NCBI GenBank assembly: GCA_964535825.1
Contig: CAZHUC010000005.1
Location: forward strand, 102,229-166,228
DNA: 64,000 bases
Origin: an uncultured Rickettsiales bacterium
GTDB taxonomy: Bacteria; Pseudomonadota; Alphaproteobacteria; Rickettsiales; SXRF01
Direction of reading: 5' to 3'
Part shown: piece after piece, positions 3,756 to 60,891 of the stretch
Layout: each line of letters starts with the position of its first letter
Position numbering within the stretch: the first letter of the stretch is position 1
Position numbers and translations under genes: made by a program
Notes under the pieces: model-generated
The model's input: the letters and a program-made list of their open reading frames with translations, nothing else
What the model was told of the DNA's origin: nothing
Databases searched by the model: none

Positions 3756-4967
3756 CTATTTTGCCTTAATATACTCTGGCCTGACCCCGATACCAACGAT
3801 ACGGCCGATCAGATATTGCGTAAAACCAAGGCTCTGCAACCACCTTAAAAAGGTGGGTACGCGCAGTGGCTTATTCTGAGCCAGGACATTCCTGATCACG
3901 CGTTCCTGCATATTTACCTGTATGAACTGAATCACTTTCATGGGGAATTCGCGGCGTTTCTGCACCGCCGCCAAATGCTGCACACTGAGCATATTCATCT
4001 TAAGTGGTTCAGATAAAATGTTAGCGGCAGCAACAGCATCCTGTACCGCGAGATTCACCCCTACACCGCCGAGCGGCGACATGGCATGCGCAGCATCCCC
4101 GATACATAAGAATCCTTCGCGATACCATTGTTCCAAGCGGTCTACTTTAACGGTTAGCAGCTTCACATCATCCCACGATCTGATAGCATCCATGCGATCT
4201 GCGAAAAATGGCACGGCCTTGATCATCGCCTGACGGAATACTTCCAGTCCATTCGCTTCAAGCTGCGCCCGCCCGCCTTTGGCGATGACATAACCACACT
4301 GCCAGTAATCACAGCGATCGATCAGCACCACGATCCGTCCTGCTGCAAATTTTCCGGTAAGACCCGAAGGATCGGAAGCGTGGCGTGGAATACTGAACCA
4401 GCACACATCCATCGGCGCACCCATATCTTTTACTGCAAGTTTTGCAACATTGCGCAATACCGAATGCCTGCCATCCGCAGCAACCACGAGATCAGCATTG
4501 ATCGTCGTGATGCCTTCCGGTGTCTGCACGATGACACCAGCAATGCGGCCATTTTCTTCAATGATGCCGCTTGCTTCCGCCTGCATCATCAAACGGAACG
4601 ATGGATAGTGTTTAGCATGGGTGGCAAGGAAATTCAGGAAATCCCACTGCGGCATGAGCGCAATATATGGGCAGCGCACAGGCAACTTGCTGAGGTTGGC
4701 TATGGTGAGAGGTTCGTCCTCTACATATCCGGTGAGTGTATAGACTTTCTGGTGCGGGCATATAAGGAATTCCTCGAGCAGCCCAAGCTCATGCATGATC
4801 TCAAGTGTTGATGGATGAATGGTATCGCCACGAAAGTCACGGAAGAAATCGGCGTGCTTTTCCAGCACAACAACATCAACCCCGCTACGCGCCAACAAAA
4901 ACCCCAACATCATTCCGGCGGGCCCGCCACCGGCTATCACGCATTGGGTTTTTATGTCGTCCCTCAT
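3756..4967 (-). CDS. FAD-dependent monooxygenase/oxidoreductase (UbiH/PHBH-like fold)
   Basis: 403 aa with GGGPAGMMLG dinucleotide-binding motif, DGRHS, and GDAAHAMSPLGGVGVNLAVQDA FAD-contact motif. Confidence 0.8.
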   Translation of the reverse strand: MRDDIKTQCVIAGGGPAGMMLGFLLARSGVDVVVLEKHADFFRDFRGDTIHPSTLEIMHELGLLEEFLICPHQKVYTLTGYVEDEPLTIANLSKLPVRCPYIALMPQWDFLNFLATHAKHYPSFRLMMQAEASGIIEENGRIAGVIVQTPEGITTINADLVVAADGRHSVLRNVAKLAVKDMGAPMDVCWFSIPRHASDPSGLTGKFAAGRIVVLIDRCDYWQCGYVIAKGGRAQLEANGLEVFRQAMIKAVPFFADRMDAIRSWDDVKLLTVKVDRLEQWYREGFLCIGDAAHAMSPLGGVGVNLAVQDAVAAANILSEPLKMNMLSVQHLAAVQKRREFPMKVIQFIQVNMQERVIRNVLAQNKPLRVPTFLRWLQSLGFTQYLIGRIVGIGVRPEYIKAK

Positions 4968-9732: not shown

Positions 9733-11223
9733 ATGGTACTTGCTCTTTCCACATCTCCTGATGCACTTTCTGCCGACGCAGACGATATCGTTTATCGTCA
9801 GGCACCGGGAAATATTGAAGCAGAGCAAGCACTGCTTGGCGCGCTTCTGGTAAACAACGAAGCGCTCGCCCATGTCGGCGATAAGCTGCACGCCGAACAT
9901 TTCCTTGAGCCTCTGCACGCACGCATCTTTGAAGCGATCCAGAAATTCCACGACAAAGGGTTGATCGCCAATCCTGTCACGCTGAAACACTTCTTCGATC
10001 AGGATGCAGCACTTGCCGATATCGGCGGTGGTGTCTATCTGGCAAAACTTGCAGCCGCAGCGGTTACCGTGATTAACATCTCCGATTACGGCCAAATGAT
10101 CTATGACCTCGCGCTCAAGCGCCAGTTGATCGCTATCGGCGAAGACGTGGTCAACAATGCCTATCTGCACCAGCTTGATGAACCGGCACAGCACCAGATC
10201 GAAGAAACCGAACAGAAGCTCTTCAATCTTTCACTGGAAGGTTCTGGTGACAAAGGATTTCGCTCTATTCGCCATTCCGTTATCGGCGCGATCAAACATG
10301 CAGAGTTCGCACAGAAACATGATGGCGTCATTGGCCTTCCCACTGGGTATATCGATCTGGATCGTATCCTTGGCGGCTTGCACCGCTCAGACCTCATCAT
10401 CCTTGCGGGTCGCCCTTCCATGGGTAAAACAGCACTGGCCACCAACATTGCCTATAATGCCTGTGCAAGCCTGCAGCAAAAAGCCAAAGAAAAGAATATT
10501 CCGCCGAAAGAAGCTGGCTGCGTTGGTTTCTTCTCGCTTGAAATGTCAGCTGAGCAGCTTACTACGCGTCTGCTTTCTGCAGCGAGTGACCTGAATTCTT
10601 CCAATATTCACAATGGTCGCATCAGCAATGATGAATTCACGCATCTGGTACGCGCCAGCAATGAAATGAGCGCGATGCCATTCTTCATTGATGACACACC
10701 TGCCCTATCCATTTCAGCACTGCGCACCCGCGCACGCCGCCTGAAACGCATGAACAATTTGCAGCTGCTGGTGATCGATTATCTGCAGCTTGCGCGTGGC
10801 AGCTCTGCTATGTCCCAGAATAACCGCGTGCAGGAAGTATCCGAGATCACGCAAGGCCTCAAAGCCATCGCTAAAGAACTCGATATCCCTGTGATCGCAC
10901 TGTCACAGCTTTCACGTCAGGTTGAAAATCGCGGCACGAAGGCACGGGATAAAATTCCGCAACTGGCTGACCTTCGTGAATCAGGTTCTATTGAGCAAGA
11001 TGCCGACGTGGTGATGTTCATTTACCGCGAAGAATATTATCTCTCTCGCGAACAGCCGATGGAAGGCACGCCAGAGCACGCCGCTTGGCAAACAGAAATG
11101 GACCGCGCCATGAACGTGGCCGAGGTTATCATCGCCAAGCACCGTAACGGCCCGATCGATACGGCAAAGCTGCGCTTTGAAGGCAGGCTCACCAAATTTA
11201 CCAATCTGGATGAGCATCACTAA
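9733..11223 (+). CDS. dnaB: Replicative DNA helicase DnaB
   Basis: PGNIEAEQALLGALL N-terminal motif, Walker A GRPSMGKTALA, FSLEMS, LVIDYLQL, SQLSRQVE, RESGSIEQDADVV. Confidence 0.95.
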   Translation: MVLALSTSPDALSADADDIVYRQAPGNIEAEQALLGALLVNNEALAHVGDKLHAEHFLEPLHARIFEAIQKFHDKGLIANPVTLKHFFDQDAALADIGGGVYLAKLAAAAVTVINISDYGQMIYDLALKRQLIAIGEDVVNNAYLHQLDEPAQHQIEETEQKLFNLSLEGSGDKGFRSIRHSVIGAIKHAEFAQKHDGVIGLPTGYIDLDRILGGLHRSDLIILAGRPSMGKTALATNIAYNACASLQQKAKEKNIPPKEAGCVGFFSLEMSAEQLTTRLLSAASDLNSSNIHNGRISNDEFTHLVRASNEMSAMPFFIDDTPALSISALRTRARRLKRMNNLQLLVIDYLQLARGSSAMSQNNRVQEVSEITQGLKAIAKELDIPVIALSQLSRQVENRGTKARDKIPQLADLRESGSIEQDADVVMFIYREEYYLSREQPMEGTPEHAAWQTEMDRAMNVAEVIIAKHRNGPIDTAKLRFEGRLTKFTNLDEHH

Positions 11224-46224: not shown

Positions 46225-47793
46225 TTATTTCACAGGTTTGCCATCGCCCGGCAGCCCCATATTTTGCCACATGTTGGTTATCTTATCAACAACCTCCTGA
46301 TTCATAACGATCTTCTTGCCCCATTCGCGACTGGTCTCGGGGGGGATTTTATCCGTAGCGTCTAAACCAGCCTTGCCACCCATGCCTGATTCGGGGGAAG
46401 CGAAGTCGAGATAATCGATGGGTGTCGCATCAATCAACGTAATATCCCGAATCGGGTCCATACGCGTGGAAACCGCCCACATCACCTGCTTCCAGTCCCG
46501 TACATTAATGTCATCATCCACCACAATTATCCATTTTGTATAAATAAACTGGCGCAAGTAAGACCATATCCCCATCATGATGCGCTTGGCATGCCCCGGA
46601 TAGGCTTTTTTGATGGATACCACCGCGATACGATATGAACACCCCTCAGGCGGCAAATAAAAATCCACGATCTCGGGGAATTGCTGCTGCAAGAGCGGAA
46701 TGAATACCTCATTCAGTGCCTCCCCCAGCACCGATGGTTCATCCGGCGGATGGCCGGTATGCGTGCTTAAATAAATAGGGTTCTTGCGCATGGTGATGGC
46801 GGTGATGGTAAAGACCGGAAACTTCTCCACCGAATTATAAAATCCCGTATGGTCACCGAATGGTCCTTCATCGCCGTACTCATCGAGCGATACATAGCCC
46901 TCCAGCACAATTTCCGCCTCGGCAGGCACTTTGAGCGGCACGGTCTTGCAATCTACCAGCTCCACCTTCTCGCCGCGCAACAGGCCGGCATATTGATATT
47001 CACTCATGGTATCCGGCACAGGTGTTACCGCTGCCAGAATGGTTGCAGGGTCACAGCCTATTACAGCTGCTGCCGGTAGCGGCTCGCGCTTTTCCTTGCC
47101 CCAGCGTGCGTAATGCTGCGCCCCGCCGCGATGCTTCAGCCAGCGCATGAGCGTTGTATTTTTACCCGTCACCTGCAGACGGTATATGCCCAAATTAAAA
47201 TTATCTTCGGCTTTATCACTTGGACCTTTGGTTACAATGAGAGGCCATGTAATGAGCGGCGAAGCATCATCCGGCCAGCATGTCTGGATAGGGAATTTAC
47301 TAAGATCGATATCATCACCCGTAAGCACCACTTCCTGACATGGTGCAGCCTTTACAGTTTTAGGCTTCATCGCCATGGCGGTTTTTACCAGCGGCAATAA
47401 TTCGAGCGCCTCTTTCCAGCCGCCTGGGGGCTCAGGTTGGCGCAGGAATGCAAGTTTTTCACCCAACTCACGCAGCTCGTGTGGCTCACGCCCCATACCC
47501 CACGCCACACGCTCTATTGTGCCAAATAAATTGATGAGCACGGGCATGCTGCTTTGTTTACCTCCGGAATTTTCTGCTGAAAATTCCATGAGGCGCGGCT
47601 CATGGCTGGTACGGCCTGCTGGCCGCACATTCTGTATTACATTCTCGAAGAGCACCGCAGGTCCGCCCTCTGCGATGAGTCTCCTGCCGATCTCCGTCAT
47701 CTCCAGATGGGTAGATACAGGCTCACTCACCCGCACCAAACGGCCGTTCTTTTCAAGATGAGCAATGAAATCGCGCAGGGAGTTATAGGTCAT
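46225..47793 (-). CDS. ubiD: UbiD-family decarboxylase (4-hydroxy-3-polyprenylbenzoate decarboxylase)
   Basis: Collinear with E. coli UbiD as I recall it (LRDF...[44 protein letters not shown]). Start trimmed to [14 protein letters not shown] (ATG 47791-47793 checked). Confidence 0.9.
47551..47640. repeat. Hairpin-rich segment of about 90 bp, apparently inserted in frame in ubiD
   Basis: Encodes [30 protein letters not shown] where E. coli UbiD has about 4 residues (LFEN-PKGY-SMPVL). Contains hairpins GGAATTTTC-TGCT-GAAAATTCC (47566-47587), CATGAG-GCGCGG-CTCATG (47587-47604) and GTACGGCC-TGCT-GGCCGCAC. Confidence 0.5.
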
Positions 47794-47795
47794 AC

Positions 47796-48098
47796 TTACC
47801 TTTGTAGCGCATGAATGCAGGCATATATCGCCAACCAGAAGCATAGCACCAGTTGCAAGACTTGCATTATGCGGACTACTTTCGAGTTTTTAATCCATCG
47901 GCTAATTAACGCTAAAATGCATGCTGCAATAAAAAGCATTCCAGCATATGCGGAACCTAAAAATAAGGCAAAGCCAGCTCTTTCACCACCCACAGACAAA
48001 TTAAAAAATAGAATAATACCCCAAGAAATCCAAGGGAAAATCATGGTCATGACCATGAGATACGATGAATGCAGAAATTTCATATTTCTACGCAACAT
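47796..48098 (-). CDS. Small membrane protein, 100 aa, unknown function
   Basis: ATG (48096-48098 checked). Three hydrophobic helices. A+T-rich. Packed between the GNAT gene and ubiD with 1-2-nt gaps. Confidence 0.45.
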
Positions 48099-48099
48099 A

Positions 48100-48588
48100 T
48101 TATTTGATCACCTTTGCCATCAACACATCATCCACATAACTACCATCGGCACGTTTCATGAGCTGCTTTTCTACGCCGTAAGGCTCGAAACCCAAATGCT
48201 GATACATGCGTTGTGTCTCTGGGTGCTCCGCATTGGCTGAAAGTAATATACGTTCAAGACCAGCTGTTTTTGCTGCTTCCAAAAGTAATTCTATCATCCC
48301 GCGAGCAAATCCCTTGCCGCGCGCTTGCGGTATCACGTACACACCCCAAATACTCCCCCGATGCTGTAATTTTTTGCCCTTGTTGCGATAAAGCCCTGCA
48401 ATGCCAACCAATTCTCCATCGGTAAAACCACCTGCGATCCAGCCATTCTCAAAATATGTTTCTGCTGGTTTGGCTGCAACTTCATCATCTGTTTCAAGAA
48501 ACGAATCAGCTTCTTCCTTCACCGCGCGCATGCGTAATGCGTAAAACATCTGCGCATCATCTTTTGTAAGTAACCGAACCTCAACCAT
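48100..48588 (-). CDS. GNAT-family N-acetyltransferase
   Basis: The LQHRGSIWGVYVIPQARGKGFARGMIE region matches the GNAT acetyl-CoA motif A pattern. Start trimmed to MVEVRLL (ATG 48586-48588) or MTMVEV (48594). The track N-terminus reads through a repeat element. Confidence 0.75.
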   Translation of the reverse strand: MVEVRLLTKDDAQMFYALRMRAVKEEADSFLETDDEVAAKPAETYFENGWIAGGFTDGELVGIAGLYRNKGKKLQHRGSIWGVYVIPQARGKGFARGMIELLLEAAKTAGLERILLSANAEHPETQRMYQHLGFEPYGVEKQLMKRADGSYVDDVLMAKVIK

Positions 48589-48589
48589 T

Positions 48590-48674
48590 GTCATCCCCGC
48601 CTTGGGCGGGGATCTAGGGACTCTTGTCCTGACACCGCGTGTGGCTCTAGACCCCCGATTAAATCGGGGGTGAC
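48590..48674. repeat. 85-bp MITE-like palindromic element with imperfect terminal inverted repeats GTCAYCCCCG
   Basis: Left hairpin ATCCCCGCC-TTG-GGCGGGGAT (48593-48613), two CTAG motifs, and right hairpin CCCCCGAT-TAA-ATCGGGGG. Ends are GTCATCCCCGCC and ATCGGGGGTGAC. The core recurs at 56733-56759. Confidence 0.6.
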
Positions 48675-48983
48675 ACCAAATTTCTCTTTCACTTCCTGCA
48701 TCTGGCTGTCGGCAGAAAAATATTCCCATGTAATACCGTTTGCATCTTTTTCTTCGCGGAAAGTTTTTTCAGCTGCATCTTCGAAGCCGATATGACGCAC
48801 CACACCTGAAGCCTGCCCCTCTTTGCAGGAAATGGTGAAGTTCAAAAGCTCCGTTCTCCACAGCGCATAACGCCCCTCCACGCTTACACTGGGCGTGCAG
48901 CCGAGCCGCTTGCTGTAATCAGCGACCGAGGCAGAAAAATCAGATACGGCAATGGAAATGTGGAAGCGTGTCATGCCGCGCAT
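48591..48983 (-). CDS. VOC (glyoxalase/bleomycin-resistance fold) family protein with a repeat-encoded C-terminal tail
   Basis: FHISIAVSDFSASVADYSKRLG is a typical VOC N-terminal beta-alpha motif. The last 28 codons or so (VTPDLIGGLEPHAVSGQESLDPRPRRG) are encoded by the 48590-48674 element. Confidence 0.55.
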   Translation of the reverse strand: MRGMTRFHISIAVSDFSASVADYSKRLGCTPSVSVEGRYALWRTELLNFTISCKEGQASGVVRHIGFEDAAEKTFREEKDANGITWEYFSADSQMQEVKEKFGVTPDLIGGLEPHAVSGQESLDPRPRRG

Positions 48984-48984
48984 C

Positions 48985-49704
48985 CTAGCGGGTGCGGAAA
49001 ATTTCGTAAAGCGCCACGGCGGCAGCGTTGGATACGTTAAGGCTTTCCATTTTATCCGACATGGGTAATTTTACCAGATAATCGCAGTGCTCTGCGGTCA
49101 AGCGGCGCAGCCCCTTGCCTTCTGCCCCCAGCACCAAAGCTGTTTTATTATCCAGTTTGGCTTCAGCAATGGTTTGTTTCGCATCACCATCCAGCCCCGC
49201 CACCCAATATTCATGTTTTTTGAGGATCTCGATGGCCTGAGAAAGGTTGGAGACCGAAATAAGCGGTACGATCTCCAGCGCGCTGCTGGCCGTTTTAGCC
49301 ATGATGCCGGATTCTGAGGGTGCGTTGCGGTCGGTCACGATCACACAGCCCGCATCGAACGCCGCCGCCGAGCGCATGATCGCGCCTACATTGTGCGGGT
49401 CAGACACCTGATCAAGCAGCACCACCGGCTTTTTGATGCCCTCGGAAAGCCAGTCATGCAGTGAAGGCTGTTGCAACGGCTCACATTCCACCGCGATGCC
49501 CTGATGCACTGCATCCTTAGGCAGCATGACGTCTATCTTACCACCATCCACCACCGATACGGTCTTGAGGCCGGAAAACACCCCTTCCCCTATTTCCTTG
49601 CGTGTGTTTGTGGTTACCAGTACGCGCTTGATCTTGCGCATGGGATTCGACAATGCGGCAAGGGCAGCATGCCTGCCATAAAGTATGTGGGGACTTTTGC
49701 TCAT
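48985..49704 (-). CDS. rlmB: TrmH/SpoU-family RNA 2'-O-methyltransferase, RlmB-like architecture
   Basis: N-terminal substrate-binding region (ILYGRHAALAAL) and SpoU methylase motifs (LDQVSDPHNVGAIMRSAAAFD, LVLGAEGKGLR, LNVSNAAAVALYE). Confidence 0.75.
   Translation of the reverse strand: MSKSPHILYGRHAALAALSNPMRKIKRVLVTTNTRKEIGEGVFSGLKTVSVVDGGKIDVMLPKDAVHQGIAVECEPLQQPSLHDWLSEGIKKPVVLLDQVSDPHNVGAIMRSAAAFDAGCVIVTDRNAPSESGIMAKTASSALEIVPLISVSNLSQAIEILKKHEYWVAGLDGDAKQTIAEAKLDNKTALVLGAEGKGLRRLTAEHCDYLVKLPMSDKMESLNVSNAAAVALYEIFRTR

Positions 49705-52496: not shown

Positions 52497-60891
<8,395 letters not shown>

Follow-up and report, generated by a model that had tools for sequence, protein, structure and literature searches.

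A putative CGTC-tagged palindromic repeat dimer forms the end of a VOC-fold gene in an uncultured alphaproteobacterial lineage

Introduction

How can a short palindromic sequence come to form the last codons of one gene and touch the start of the next while leaving the operon unbroken? The question is raised by an 85-bp element (48590-48674) in a stretch of DNA from an uncultured Rickettsiales bacterium (assembly GCA_964535825.1, contig CAZHUC010000005.1), which we analyzed over its full length of 64 kb and refer to as the window. The element lies at the junction of a gene for a protein of the VOC fold and a gene for a GNAT acetyltransferase. The original prediction described it as a palindromic mini-element that had extended a coding region in the manner of the Rickettsia palindromic elements (RPEs), and as a sign of a mobile or formerly mobile repeat family in this genome. 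The comparisons presented here indicate that it is probably a palindromic repeat unit of a kind already described and not autonomous, situated on the last VOC codons in a single sub-lineage of a clade of uncultured Alphaproteobacteria. It provides a checkable example of a small palindromic repeat rewriting the end of a gene, with an open frame, a stop, and a start in its own terminal tag, and it adds a comparison of filled and empty sites in uncultured Alphaproteobacteria for a family whose mechanism of mobility is unproven.

Structure of the element

The plus strand at 48590-48674 reads GTCATCCCCGCCTTGGGCGGGGATCTAGGGACTCTTGTCCTGACACCGCGTGTGGCTCTAGACCCCCGATTAAATCGGGGGTGAC, with ends GTCATCCCCGCC and ATCGGGGGTGAC, and the two strong hairpins and internal CTAG motifs described earlier were all found in place. 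With the outer T and A included, the element spans 87 bp (48589-48675, with no strand of its own) and is bounded by complete TGTC and GACA tags. Each half is a 28-nt module, inverted relative to the other, with a TGTC tag outside, a 9-bp GC-rich hairpin, and a CTAG tail inside. Module A (48589-48617, plus strand) consists of the TGTC tag, stem ATCCCCGCC, loop TTG, stem GGCGGGGAT and tail CTAG, and module B (48647-48675, minus strand) of the TGTC tag, stem ACCCCCGAT, loop TTA, stem ATCGGGGGT and tail CTAG; between them lies a 29-bp spacer (48618-48646, no strand) that encodes EPHAVSGQES in the VOC frame. On the plus strand the two perfect 9-bp hairpins are ATCCCCGCC-TTG-GGCGGGGAT at 48593-48613 and ACCCCCGAT-TAA-ATCGGGGGT at 48651-48671, and the CTAG motifs are at 48614-48617 and 48647-48650. 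Read along the minus strand, which is the sense strand, the order is TGTC-ACCCCCGAT-TTA-ATCGGGGGT-CTAG, the 29-nt spacer, and CTAG-ATCCCCGCC-CAA-GGCGGGGAT-GACA, such that the 3' arm of module A contains both the VOC stop codon and an ATG borne by the element.

The structure is far above chance. Folded as single-stranded DNA, the two strands of the 87-mer reached -26.7 and -25.1 kcal/mol, compared to -12.6 and -11.8 kcal/mol for shuffled sequences (z -6.6 and -6.2; 0 of 200 shuffles were equally good). The single hairpins gave -10.6 kcal/mol (z -4.6) for module A and -9.8 kcal/mol (z -4.7) for module B, and the RNA fold of the element in its context had a z of -4.2. The reading frames of the element have a pattern of their own: the frame that starts from the GTC of a tag is open for 27 codons in either orientation and then meets the TGA in the tag at the other end; no stop interrupts the +2 frames, and the only closed frames are those that read both CTAGs as TAG. 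Because 85 bp is not a multiple of 3, such a unit causes a frameshift inside a gene, but at the end of a gene it swaps the C-terminus and supplies its own stop.

The tail of the VOC-fold protein

The VOC-fold gene is a 130-residue open reading frame on the minus strand (48591-48983), the coding strand for every gene in this part of the window. Its frame was predicted to run through the whole element, adding about 28 codons, and this agrees with what we observed: the element supplies residues 104-130 (48594-48674), VTPDLIGGLEPHAVSGQESLDPRPRRG, which is 27 residues followed by a stop and includes the peptide stretch GLEPHAVSGQESLDPR. The stop, TGA at 48591-48593, falls within the element's terminal GATGAC. 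Translation probably begins at ATG 48972-48974, yielding a protein that starts MTRFHIS. Pfam returned Glyoxalase_4 alone and below threshold (E 0.036), but a Foldseek search with an AlphaFold model found ArsI C-As lyase and glyoxalase/bleomycin-resistance proteins (E about 1e-6, TM about 0.7 on the target), and on the strength of these matches and the confident core of the model we accept the VOC fold. Residues 4-102 of the model had a pLDDT of about 90, while residues 110-129 were below 50 and showed no secondary structure; the element-encoded tail is predicted to be disordered.

A search with the 130-residue protein found 84 homologues, about 80 of which are 96-135 residues long (mostly 101-113) and cover about 76% of the query. 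Among 31 sequences that were aligned, the element-free homologues end 2-21 residues past a conserved EKF, and in most cases 3-8 residues past it. Three close homologues and one more distant have the tail in all; in the alignment it is common only to two proteins, P0002 and P0003 (core identity 88% and 85%), with a variant in P0008 (71%) in which the first hairpin is 21 nt longer. As most homologues end soon after EKF and few have the tail, it is a derived insertion and not native.

An alternative is that the tail is native coding sequence, palindromic by chance and with no mobile origin. The frame is open in all four loci where the element was found (referred to as filled loci), the extra 21 nt of one of them (L004) stay in frame, and third codon positions account for 6 of the 10 changes among tail sequences, as might be expected of coding sequence. 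Yet about 80 of 84 homologues have no tail, disorder is predicted for it, the 28-nt modules recur at no fewer than 120 unrelated loci across phyla, and the same subfamily is found in non-coding positions elsewhere. Alignment of VOC orthologues for absence of the tail had been proposed as a check on the original prediction, with a tail shared by element-free relatives, together with a lack of further copies, named as grounds for rejecting it; neither was the case. On the evidence of the orthologues and of the family scan the native-tail interpretation is already refuted, and we assign it a negligible probability.

Filled and empty sites in relatives

DNA from the relatives L009, L007/L008 and L005 contains empty sites at the position that the element occupies between the VOC and GNAT genes in the window. 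In L009 the VOC protein ends ...EKFPGAKHG*, its TGA overlaps the GNAT start (ATGGTTGA), and the junction reads AAGCATGGTTGAAGTG. When the 85 bp were removed from the window, the VOC protein ended ...EKFGNG* with the same ATGGTTGA overlap as in L009, which suggests that the ancestral start of the GNAT gene (48100-48588 or -48594, minus strand; Pfam Acetyltransf_1, E 6e-16) is ATG 48586-48588, 2 nt outside the element and common to the element-free orthologue in L009. Also confirmed was the candidate start that had been noted inside the element, ATG 48592-48594, which overlaps the VOC stop as ATGA, is in the GNAT frame, and was chosen by public gene calls (164-residue product), to which it adds two codons (MT). 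This element-borne ATG is probably a new alternative start and not the ancestral one. For annotation, the last 27 residues of the VOC protein and the first two of the annotated GNAT protein are repeat-derived and not to be taken as conserved protein sequence.

L007 is the closest syntenic relative of the window, with about 84% identity across 9.9 kb from rpoB to the gene for a SpoU-type methyltransferase; its VOC alignment with the window stops at 48679, 5 nt before the element. In the four filled loci the next gene begins 0-6 nt past the stop inside the element. For the window and L002 this gene is GNAT, and for L003 and L004 it is UbiD; L003, L004 and L005 have no GNAT gene. Judging from the comparison with L005, the element's first GT may belong to the target. 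We also considered a Correia-type element or miniature inverted-repeat transposable element (MITE) with a TA duplication, which was rejected as there is no direct repeat in the flanks (GG|T...A|AT) and no relation between the terminal sequences.

Family identity

Two literatures describe modules of this kind. Di Nocera, De Gregorio and Rocco (2013, BMC Genomics 14:522; PMC3733652) defined REP sequences with the tag CGTC or TGTC, a stem of 8-9 bp that opens with A-T residues at positions 1 and 2, a loop of 4-5 nt, and an unpaired 3-nt tail with the consensus CCA. These CGTC-tagged REPs occur chiefly in Alphaproteobacteria as a repeated family of tens to thousands of units per host genome, mostly as dimers with the tags outside (HH), with spacers of 20-100 bp in most. 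The same study found most of them less than 20 bp from the 3' end of the upstream ORF and probably transcribed, with about 10% at ORF ends; some were inside ORFs, with dimers encoding 20-30 amino acids, and no transposase was tied to them. Chenal et al. (2025, Nat Commun 16:2388; PMC11893778) described the Neisseria transformation sequence (NTS), CGTCATTCCCGCGMAVGCGGGAATCYRG, which contains the dRS3 repeat, and generalized it to the Ssn-related motif (SRM), a hairpin in single-stranded DNA that is the target of single-domain GIY-YIG nucleases (Ssn; cd10448 type), whose genes often have the motif at their flanks. They reported an SRM near 71% of ssnA homologues and identified the GTC before the palindrome and the C right after it as positions critical for cleavage and binding.

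The window element resembles CGTC-tagged REPs in its tag, inverted units and alphaproteobacterial host, in its position at the 3' end of an upstream ORF between unidirectional genes, and more loosely in its GC-rich stems starting with A, short loops and 3-nt tails. TGTC directly precedes the stem in both modules, and the tags lie outside a 29-bp spacer as in an HH dimer. Both stems are perfect and 9 bp long, with a 3-nt loop, or 5 nt if the stem is taken as 8 bp. The differences are that module B starts AC, while module A starts AT, that the loops are 3 nt with a 9-bp stem, and that the tail is CTA in both modules, one base from the CCA consensus (one module of L002 has CCA). To assess the likeness to SRMs, the published search sequence HGTCWYN(0-2)YYVSBRHN(0-5)WNVSBRGN(0-2)RNCYNB (PMC11893778) was used. 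Module B, at 48647-48675 on the minus strand, matched the pattern exactly, and module A, at 48589-48617 on the plus strand, was one substitution off, with 0.3 exact matches expected by chance per resampled window. Both modules read GTC-[palindrome]-C-TAG, in agreement with the orientation determinants of SRMs, and share with NTS and SRM sequences the layout of (C/T)GTCA followed by a palindrome and TCYRG. Unlike the SRM systems that have been described, the 64-kb window contains no ssn gene, no arrays and no enrichment, and the host is not known as naturally transformable. From these sequence comparisons we identify the element as a tags-outside (HH) dimer of two CGTC/TGTC-tagged REP hairpins, each an NTS-like SRM; the CGTC-tagged REPs of 2013 and the NTS/SRM of 2025 are one kind of module.

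Other palindromic repeats are similar in part. In Neisseria, dRS3 is a 20-bp repeat, ATTCCC-N8-GGGAAT, that flanks RS elements and is usually arrayed (Bentley et al., 2007; PMC1797815), and the repeat-spacer-repeat layout of the window resembles an isolated dRS3-RS-dRS3 unit (NIMEs). However, with the stems ATCCCC..GGGGAT and ACCCCC..GGGGGT, and without an array, the window element is not dRS3. Di Nocera et al. (PMC3733652) classified dRS3 as CGTC-1, and likewise Rickettsia RPE-6 as CGTC-1 and RPE-4 as CGTC-4, and in this respect the original comparison to RPEs was apt, since two of these elements belong to the CGTC-tagged REP superfamily. The kinship rests on that classification; the likeness is that of a palindromic repeat of a tagged-hairpin superfamily, translated in a host protein of an alphaproteobacterium. 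The difference is that RPEs are typically internal in-frame inserts, while the window unit (85 bp, not a multiple of 3) replaces a C-terminus and brings its own stop. Changes of this type at gene ends have been recorded before for CGTC-tagged REPs and RPEs. The element belongs to a widespread family that had already been described, and so is real but ordinary; nothing here alters existing knowledge of the CGTC-tagged REP/SRM family. The stems resemble type I-E CRISPR repeats, and a CRISPR-like repeat was also considered; it was rejected, there being one dimer and no array.

The architecture also raises the possibility of a classical REPIN or BIME, in which GTAG-tagged REPs are mobilized by a RAYT tyrosine transposase. 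REPINs, like the window element, consist of two inverted REP hairpins and a spacer, about 85 bp in all, which replicate as a unit (Bertels and Rainey, 2011; PMC3116915, PMC3337134). They are distinguished by the GTAG tag and an IS200/IS605-type transposase; in the window the tag is TGTC/CGTC, no transposase was found to be associated with CGTC REPs (PMC3733652), and the modules match a motif that the literature links to genes for GIY-YIG Ssn nucleases. It is very improbable that the element is a REPIN of this kind.

The breadth of the family was evident from a scan of public genomes, one per species, with the pattern GTCAYCCCCG-N5-10-CGGGGRTCYAG. The scan found at least 120 loci in Alpha-, Beta-, Gamma- and Deltaproteobacteria, Planctomycetes, Patescibacteria, Nitrospirae, Acidobacteria and others. 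Among the matches listed, the loci have almost the same module, GTCATCCCCGCGAAGGCGGGGATCCAG, in common, and in most cases an inverted partner, CTGGATTCCCGC....GCGGGAATGAC, comes after it; in many dimers the partner module has ATTCCCGC..GCGGGAAT. Nearly all of these modules end in CCAG, although the pattern allowed TCYAG. An inverted partner was found within 150 nt for 97 of 141 modules, and the median unit was 85 bp, the length of the window element, indicating that among these matches the tags-outside dimer of about 85 bp is a common unit across phyla. A frame of at least 100 open codons runs to a stop in the TGAC at the end of the unit in 14 of 94 cases, 8 of them with more than 200 open codons upstream; this count is rough, as high-GC genomes give spurious frames. 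Spacers are common to copies within one genome (for example in L016, L128 and L053). Whole dimers with their flanks stand in tandem in Rhodopseudomonas pentothenatexigens (L016 5777-7310, six copies at intervals of about 310 bp) and in L128 (2589-3041, four copies at intervals of 124 bp), suggesting that in these genomes the dimer and its flank were amplified as a unit.

Copies of the same subfamily and the search of the window

A metagenome scan with the left module and the start of the spacer found 15 loci. The subfamily to which the window element belongs has the form (C/T)GTCACCCCCG..CGGGGGTCTAGAGCC, a variable centre, and CCCTAGATCCCCGC..GCGGGGATGAC(A/G), with ends GGGGGTCTAGAGCC...CCCTAGATCCCCGC, and it is present in unrelated flanks in L131, L135 and L138/L139, also in non-coding positions. 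An alignment of the copies (A2) showed conserved ends and a variable centre, which in the window is the spacer. Across eight aligned copies, 91.8% of the cells in proposed pairs were standard pairs, compared to at most 49% when the partners were slid, and compensatory changes occurred at six pairs, with covariation extending to the outermost tag position (4 T/A, 2 C/G). These compensatory changes indicate that the stems have been kept. L007 contains a dimer of the same subfamily in the spacer between its SpoU and VOC genes (9905-9989), 0.3 kb from its empty VOC/GNAT site; the SpoU reading frame of L007 reads into this dimer and ends in the spacer, giving 250 residues compared to 239 in the window (about 11-13 residues longer). 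A different CGTC dimer, GTCATCCTGAGCG...CGCTCAGAATGAC, occupies the SpoU/VOC spacer of L003 (about 690-782).

Single-domain GIY-YIG reading frames of about 90-98 residues were found within 600 bp of modules in four unrelated public loci, L010 (4092-4379), L032 (1616-1900), L116 (3604-3897) and L141 (365-631). Those in L032, L116 and L141 matched PF01541 (E 1e-14 to 3e-17) and that of L010 was recognized only by a local profile, built from the frames beside SRMs in L010, L032 and L116. In L032 a module, translated as VIPAQAGIQ, stands directly before the start of the GIY-YIG gene. These frames agree with the published association of SRMs and ssn.

Within the window, a REP-like solo hairpin, CTAGATCCCCGCACGAGGCGGGGATCAG, was found at 56734-56761, between rpoB and rpoC and 6 nt past the stop of rpoB. 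With CTGAT where the GTCAT tag would be expected, it looks like a degenerate SRM kept at the end of a gene, and its position is conserved in L007 (2132-2147). GTC-tagged hairpins were otherwise at chance level, with 5 found and 2.8 expected, at positions including 20228, 22410 (inside ORFs) and 35851. Neither 30-nt end of the element recurred elsewhere in the 64 kb with up to 3 mismatches (0 expected), and an Rfam scan of the window found one tRNA only and nothing at the element.

Several observations weigh against the interpretation of the element as a unit of a mobile repeat family. The 64-kb window contains one dimer and one degenerate solo hairpin, which does not by itself show enrichment in the genome, and the SRM pattern matched only the two modules of this dimer, so that the window is not enriched, a result that says nothing about the rest of the genome. 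When the four open frames of the element were used as bait against 5.8 billion proteins, only P0001-P0003 were retrieved and no other translated copy. No Ssn-like GIY-YIG reading frame was detected in the window (hmmsearch --max with the local GIY-YIG profile, best E 0.42), and the mobility of these repeats via Ssn nucleases is a hypothesis of the literature, not a demonstrated process. Neither a clean target-site duplication nor an exact empty-site match could be reconstructed from L009 and L005; relative to L009, the element plus 4 nt stand in place of 13 nt. Lastly, the third-position changes in the tail (6 of 10 variable sites in three sequences, P = 0.08, not significant) are a weak hint, compatible with some protein-level constraint on the tail and against a purely neutral one. 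What stands of the predicted repeat family is therefore its existence, as a large family across phyla with the same subfamily at L131, L135, L138 and L007; that it is a repeat family in this genome has not been borne out by the one dimer and one solo hairpin of the 64-kb window.

Consequences for the gene junction

The non-autonomous repeat unit that we favor probably produced the present junction. A unit would have landed on the last few VOC codons and displaced the native C-terminal end of 3-8 residues together with its stop. The open GTC frame would then have provided 27 codons and a stop at the TGA in the tag at the far end (GATGAC), and the same tag would have provided an ATG overlapping that stop (ATGA), with the ancestral GNAT start 6 nt further on. 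Since the ancestral start is only 6 nt beyond, tight coupling of the VOC and GNAT genes would be kept, and a repeat that brings an open frame, a stop and a start codon can occupy a gene junction and leave the operon unbroken. The tail would be a tolerated by-product, a disordered appendage and not a functional domain. The unit itself may have been made, moved or trimmed by a nuclease of the GIY-YIG Ssn type that recognizes hairpins in single-stranded DNA and whose gene would lie elsewhere in the genome or have belonged to an earlier host.

On the transcript, the GC-rich hairpins may act like other REPs and protect the upstream cistron. As with E. coli REPs placed beside stop codons, they may also slow termination. 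The 3' arm of the hairpin includes a purine-rich stretch, GGCGGGGA, 5 nt before the ancestral GNAT ATG, which may be hidden until the ribosome finishing the VOC gene melts the hairpin.

These features lead to a second possibility, that the pair of hairpins is kept mainly as a functional RNA signal at the junction (a terminator, attenuator, RNase site or mRNA stabilizer), with its repeat nature secondary. Folding of the transcript, proposed earlier as a means of looking for a terminator or RNase role, produced the strong fold given above (z -4.2); moreover, most CGTC REPs are within 20 bp of an upstream ORF's 3' end and probably transcribed (PMC3733652), each of the four filled loci has its next gene 0-6 nt past the element's stop, and the solo hairpin of the same type 6-10 nt past the rpoB stop in the window and L007 indicates that such hairpins can persist at gene ends. 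Opposed to this are the lack of any Rfam match at the element and the fact that L009 and L007 have the same VOC-GNAT operon and manage without the element. The terminator part of the proposal did not hold up: no T-run follows either hairpin on either strand, and a terminator scan found no site at 48589-48675, and an intrinsic (Rho-independent) terminator was rejected. We consider it unlikely that a retained RNA signal is the principal explanation.

Arrival by recombination

A separate question, which concerns how this copy arrived and not what it is, is whether the repeat unit came to the window by insertion at this site or was carried in on an element-bearing VOC allele by homologous recombination, in which case its patchy distribution would reflect allele exchange. 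The identity of the window to L002 (window 47640-49704) is a mosaic, with 72-75% for SpoU, 88.6% for the VOC core, 91.8% for the element, 65% for GNAT and 84% for the start of UbiD, while the identity to L009 is uniform at 79-82% across SpoU, VOC and GNAT. In three other pairs VOC was as divergent as SpoU or more so. The closest relative of the window also differs by protein, being L007 for SpoU (92%), L009 for GNAT (81%) and L002 for VOC. In a neighbor-joining tree of VOC proteins the element-bearers were not monophyletic: the window, P0002 and P0003 grouped in 5.5% of bootstraps, P0003 grouped with the element-free P0004, and P0008 joined the window clade in 0 of 200 bootstraps, although a marker of 99 residues resolves poorly. 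These results suggest, as a lead from one locus on short contigs, that homologous recombination has carried a block of VOC plus element between lineages and that one breakpoint lies where the element ends; they also suggest that GNAT is a variable cassette at this locus. Against an import are the single locus, the short contigs and the poorly resolved tree; in addition, constraint on the hairpins alone could make the element more conserved than its flanks, and one original insertion somewhere would still be needed. Import of an allele is a substantial possibility for this copy, and one that we would place slightly short of an even chance.

A broader conjecture is that, in this free-living, uncultured alphaproteobacterial clade, lineages exchange gene-sized blocks whose edges are marked by SRM/CGTC-REP dimers. 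It arises because VOC and element are 89-92% identical between the window and L002 while the flanks are 65-75% identical, the right breakpoint falls at the element's end, GNAT is variably present, and the dimer of L007 lies at the other end of VOC. We regard this as an improbable generalization, but if it applied, control of recombination of transforming DNA of the NTS/Ssn type, as in Neisseria, would act widely outside pathogens. A lesser possibility is purifying selection on the tail, in which case the tail would be a new C-terminal peptide derived from a repeat. The wider interest of the locus is limited to these two points, the possible link of dimers to block-wise gene exchange and the weak hint of coding-like evolution in the tail.

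Neighboring genes

In transcription order, the genes around the element are those for the SpoU-type methyltransferase (48985-49704, minus strand), the VOC-fold protein, the GNAT acetyltransferase and UbiD (46225-47793, minus strand). The spacer between GNAT and UbiD is 306 bp in the window and 7 bp in L002 and L007. It contains a hydrophobic open reading frame of 100 residues (47796-48098, minus strand) that has no Pfam match and for which a second sample (L145 633-935) has a gene call on the same strand. The UbiD gene contains a lineage-specific in-frame insert of 78 nt, or 26 codons, made up of three short hairpins (window 47548-47638, minus strand), in a loop after FENV. At this loop L007 has no insert, L005 has a different insert of 19 residues (about 4693-4762), and L004 has one of 12 residues that consists of two CCCCGC..GCGGGG hairpins (621-668). 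Different palindromic inserts have thus been taken up in this surface loop of UbiD in different relatives.

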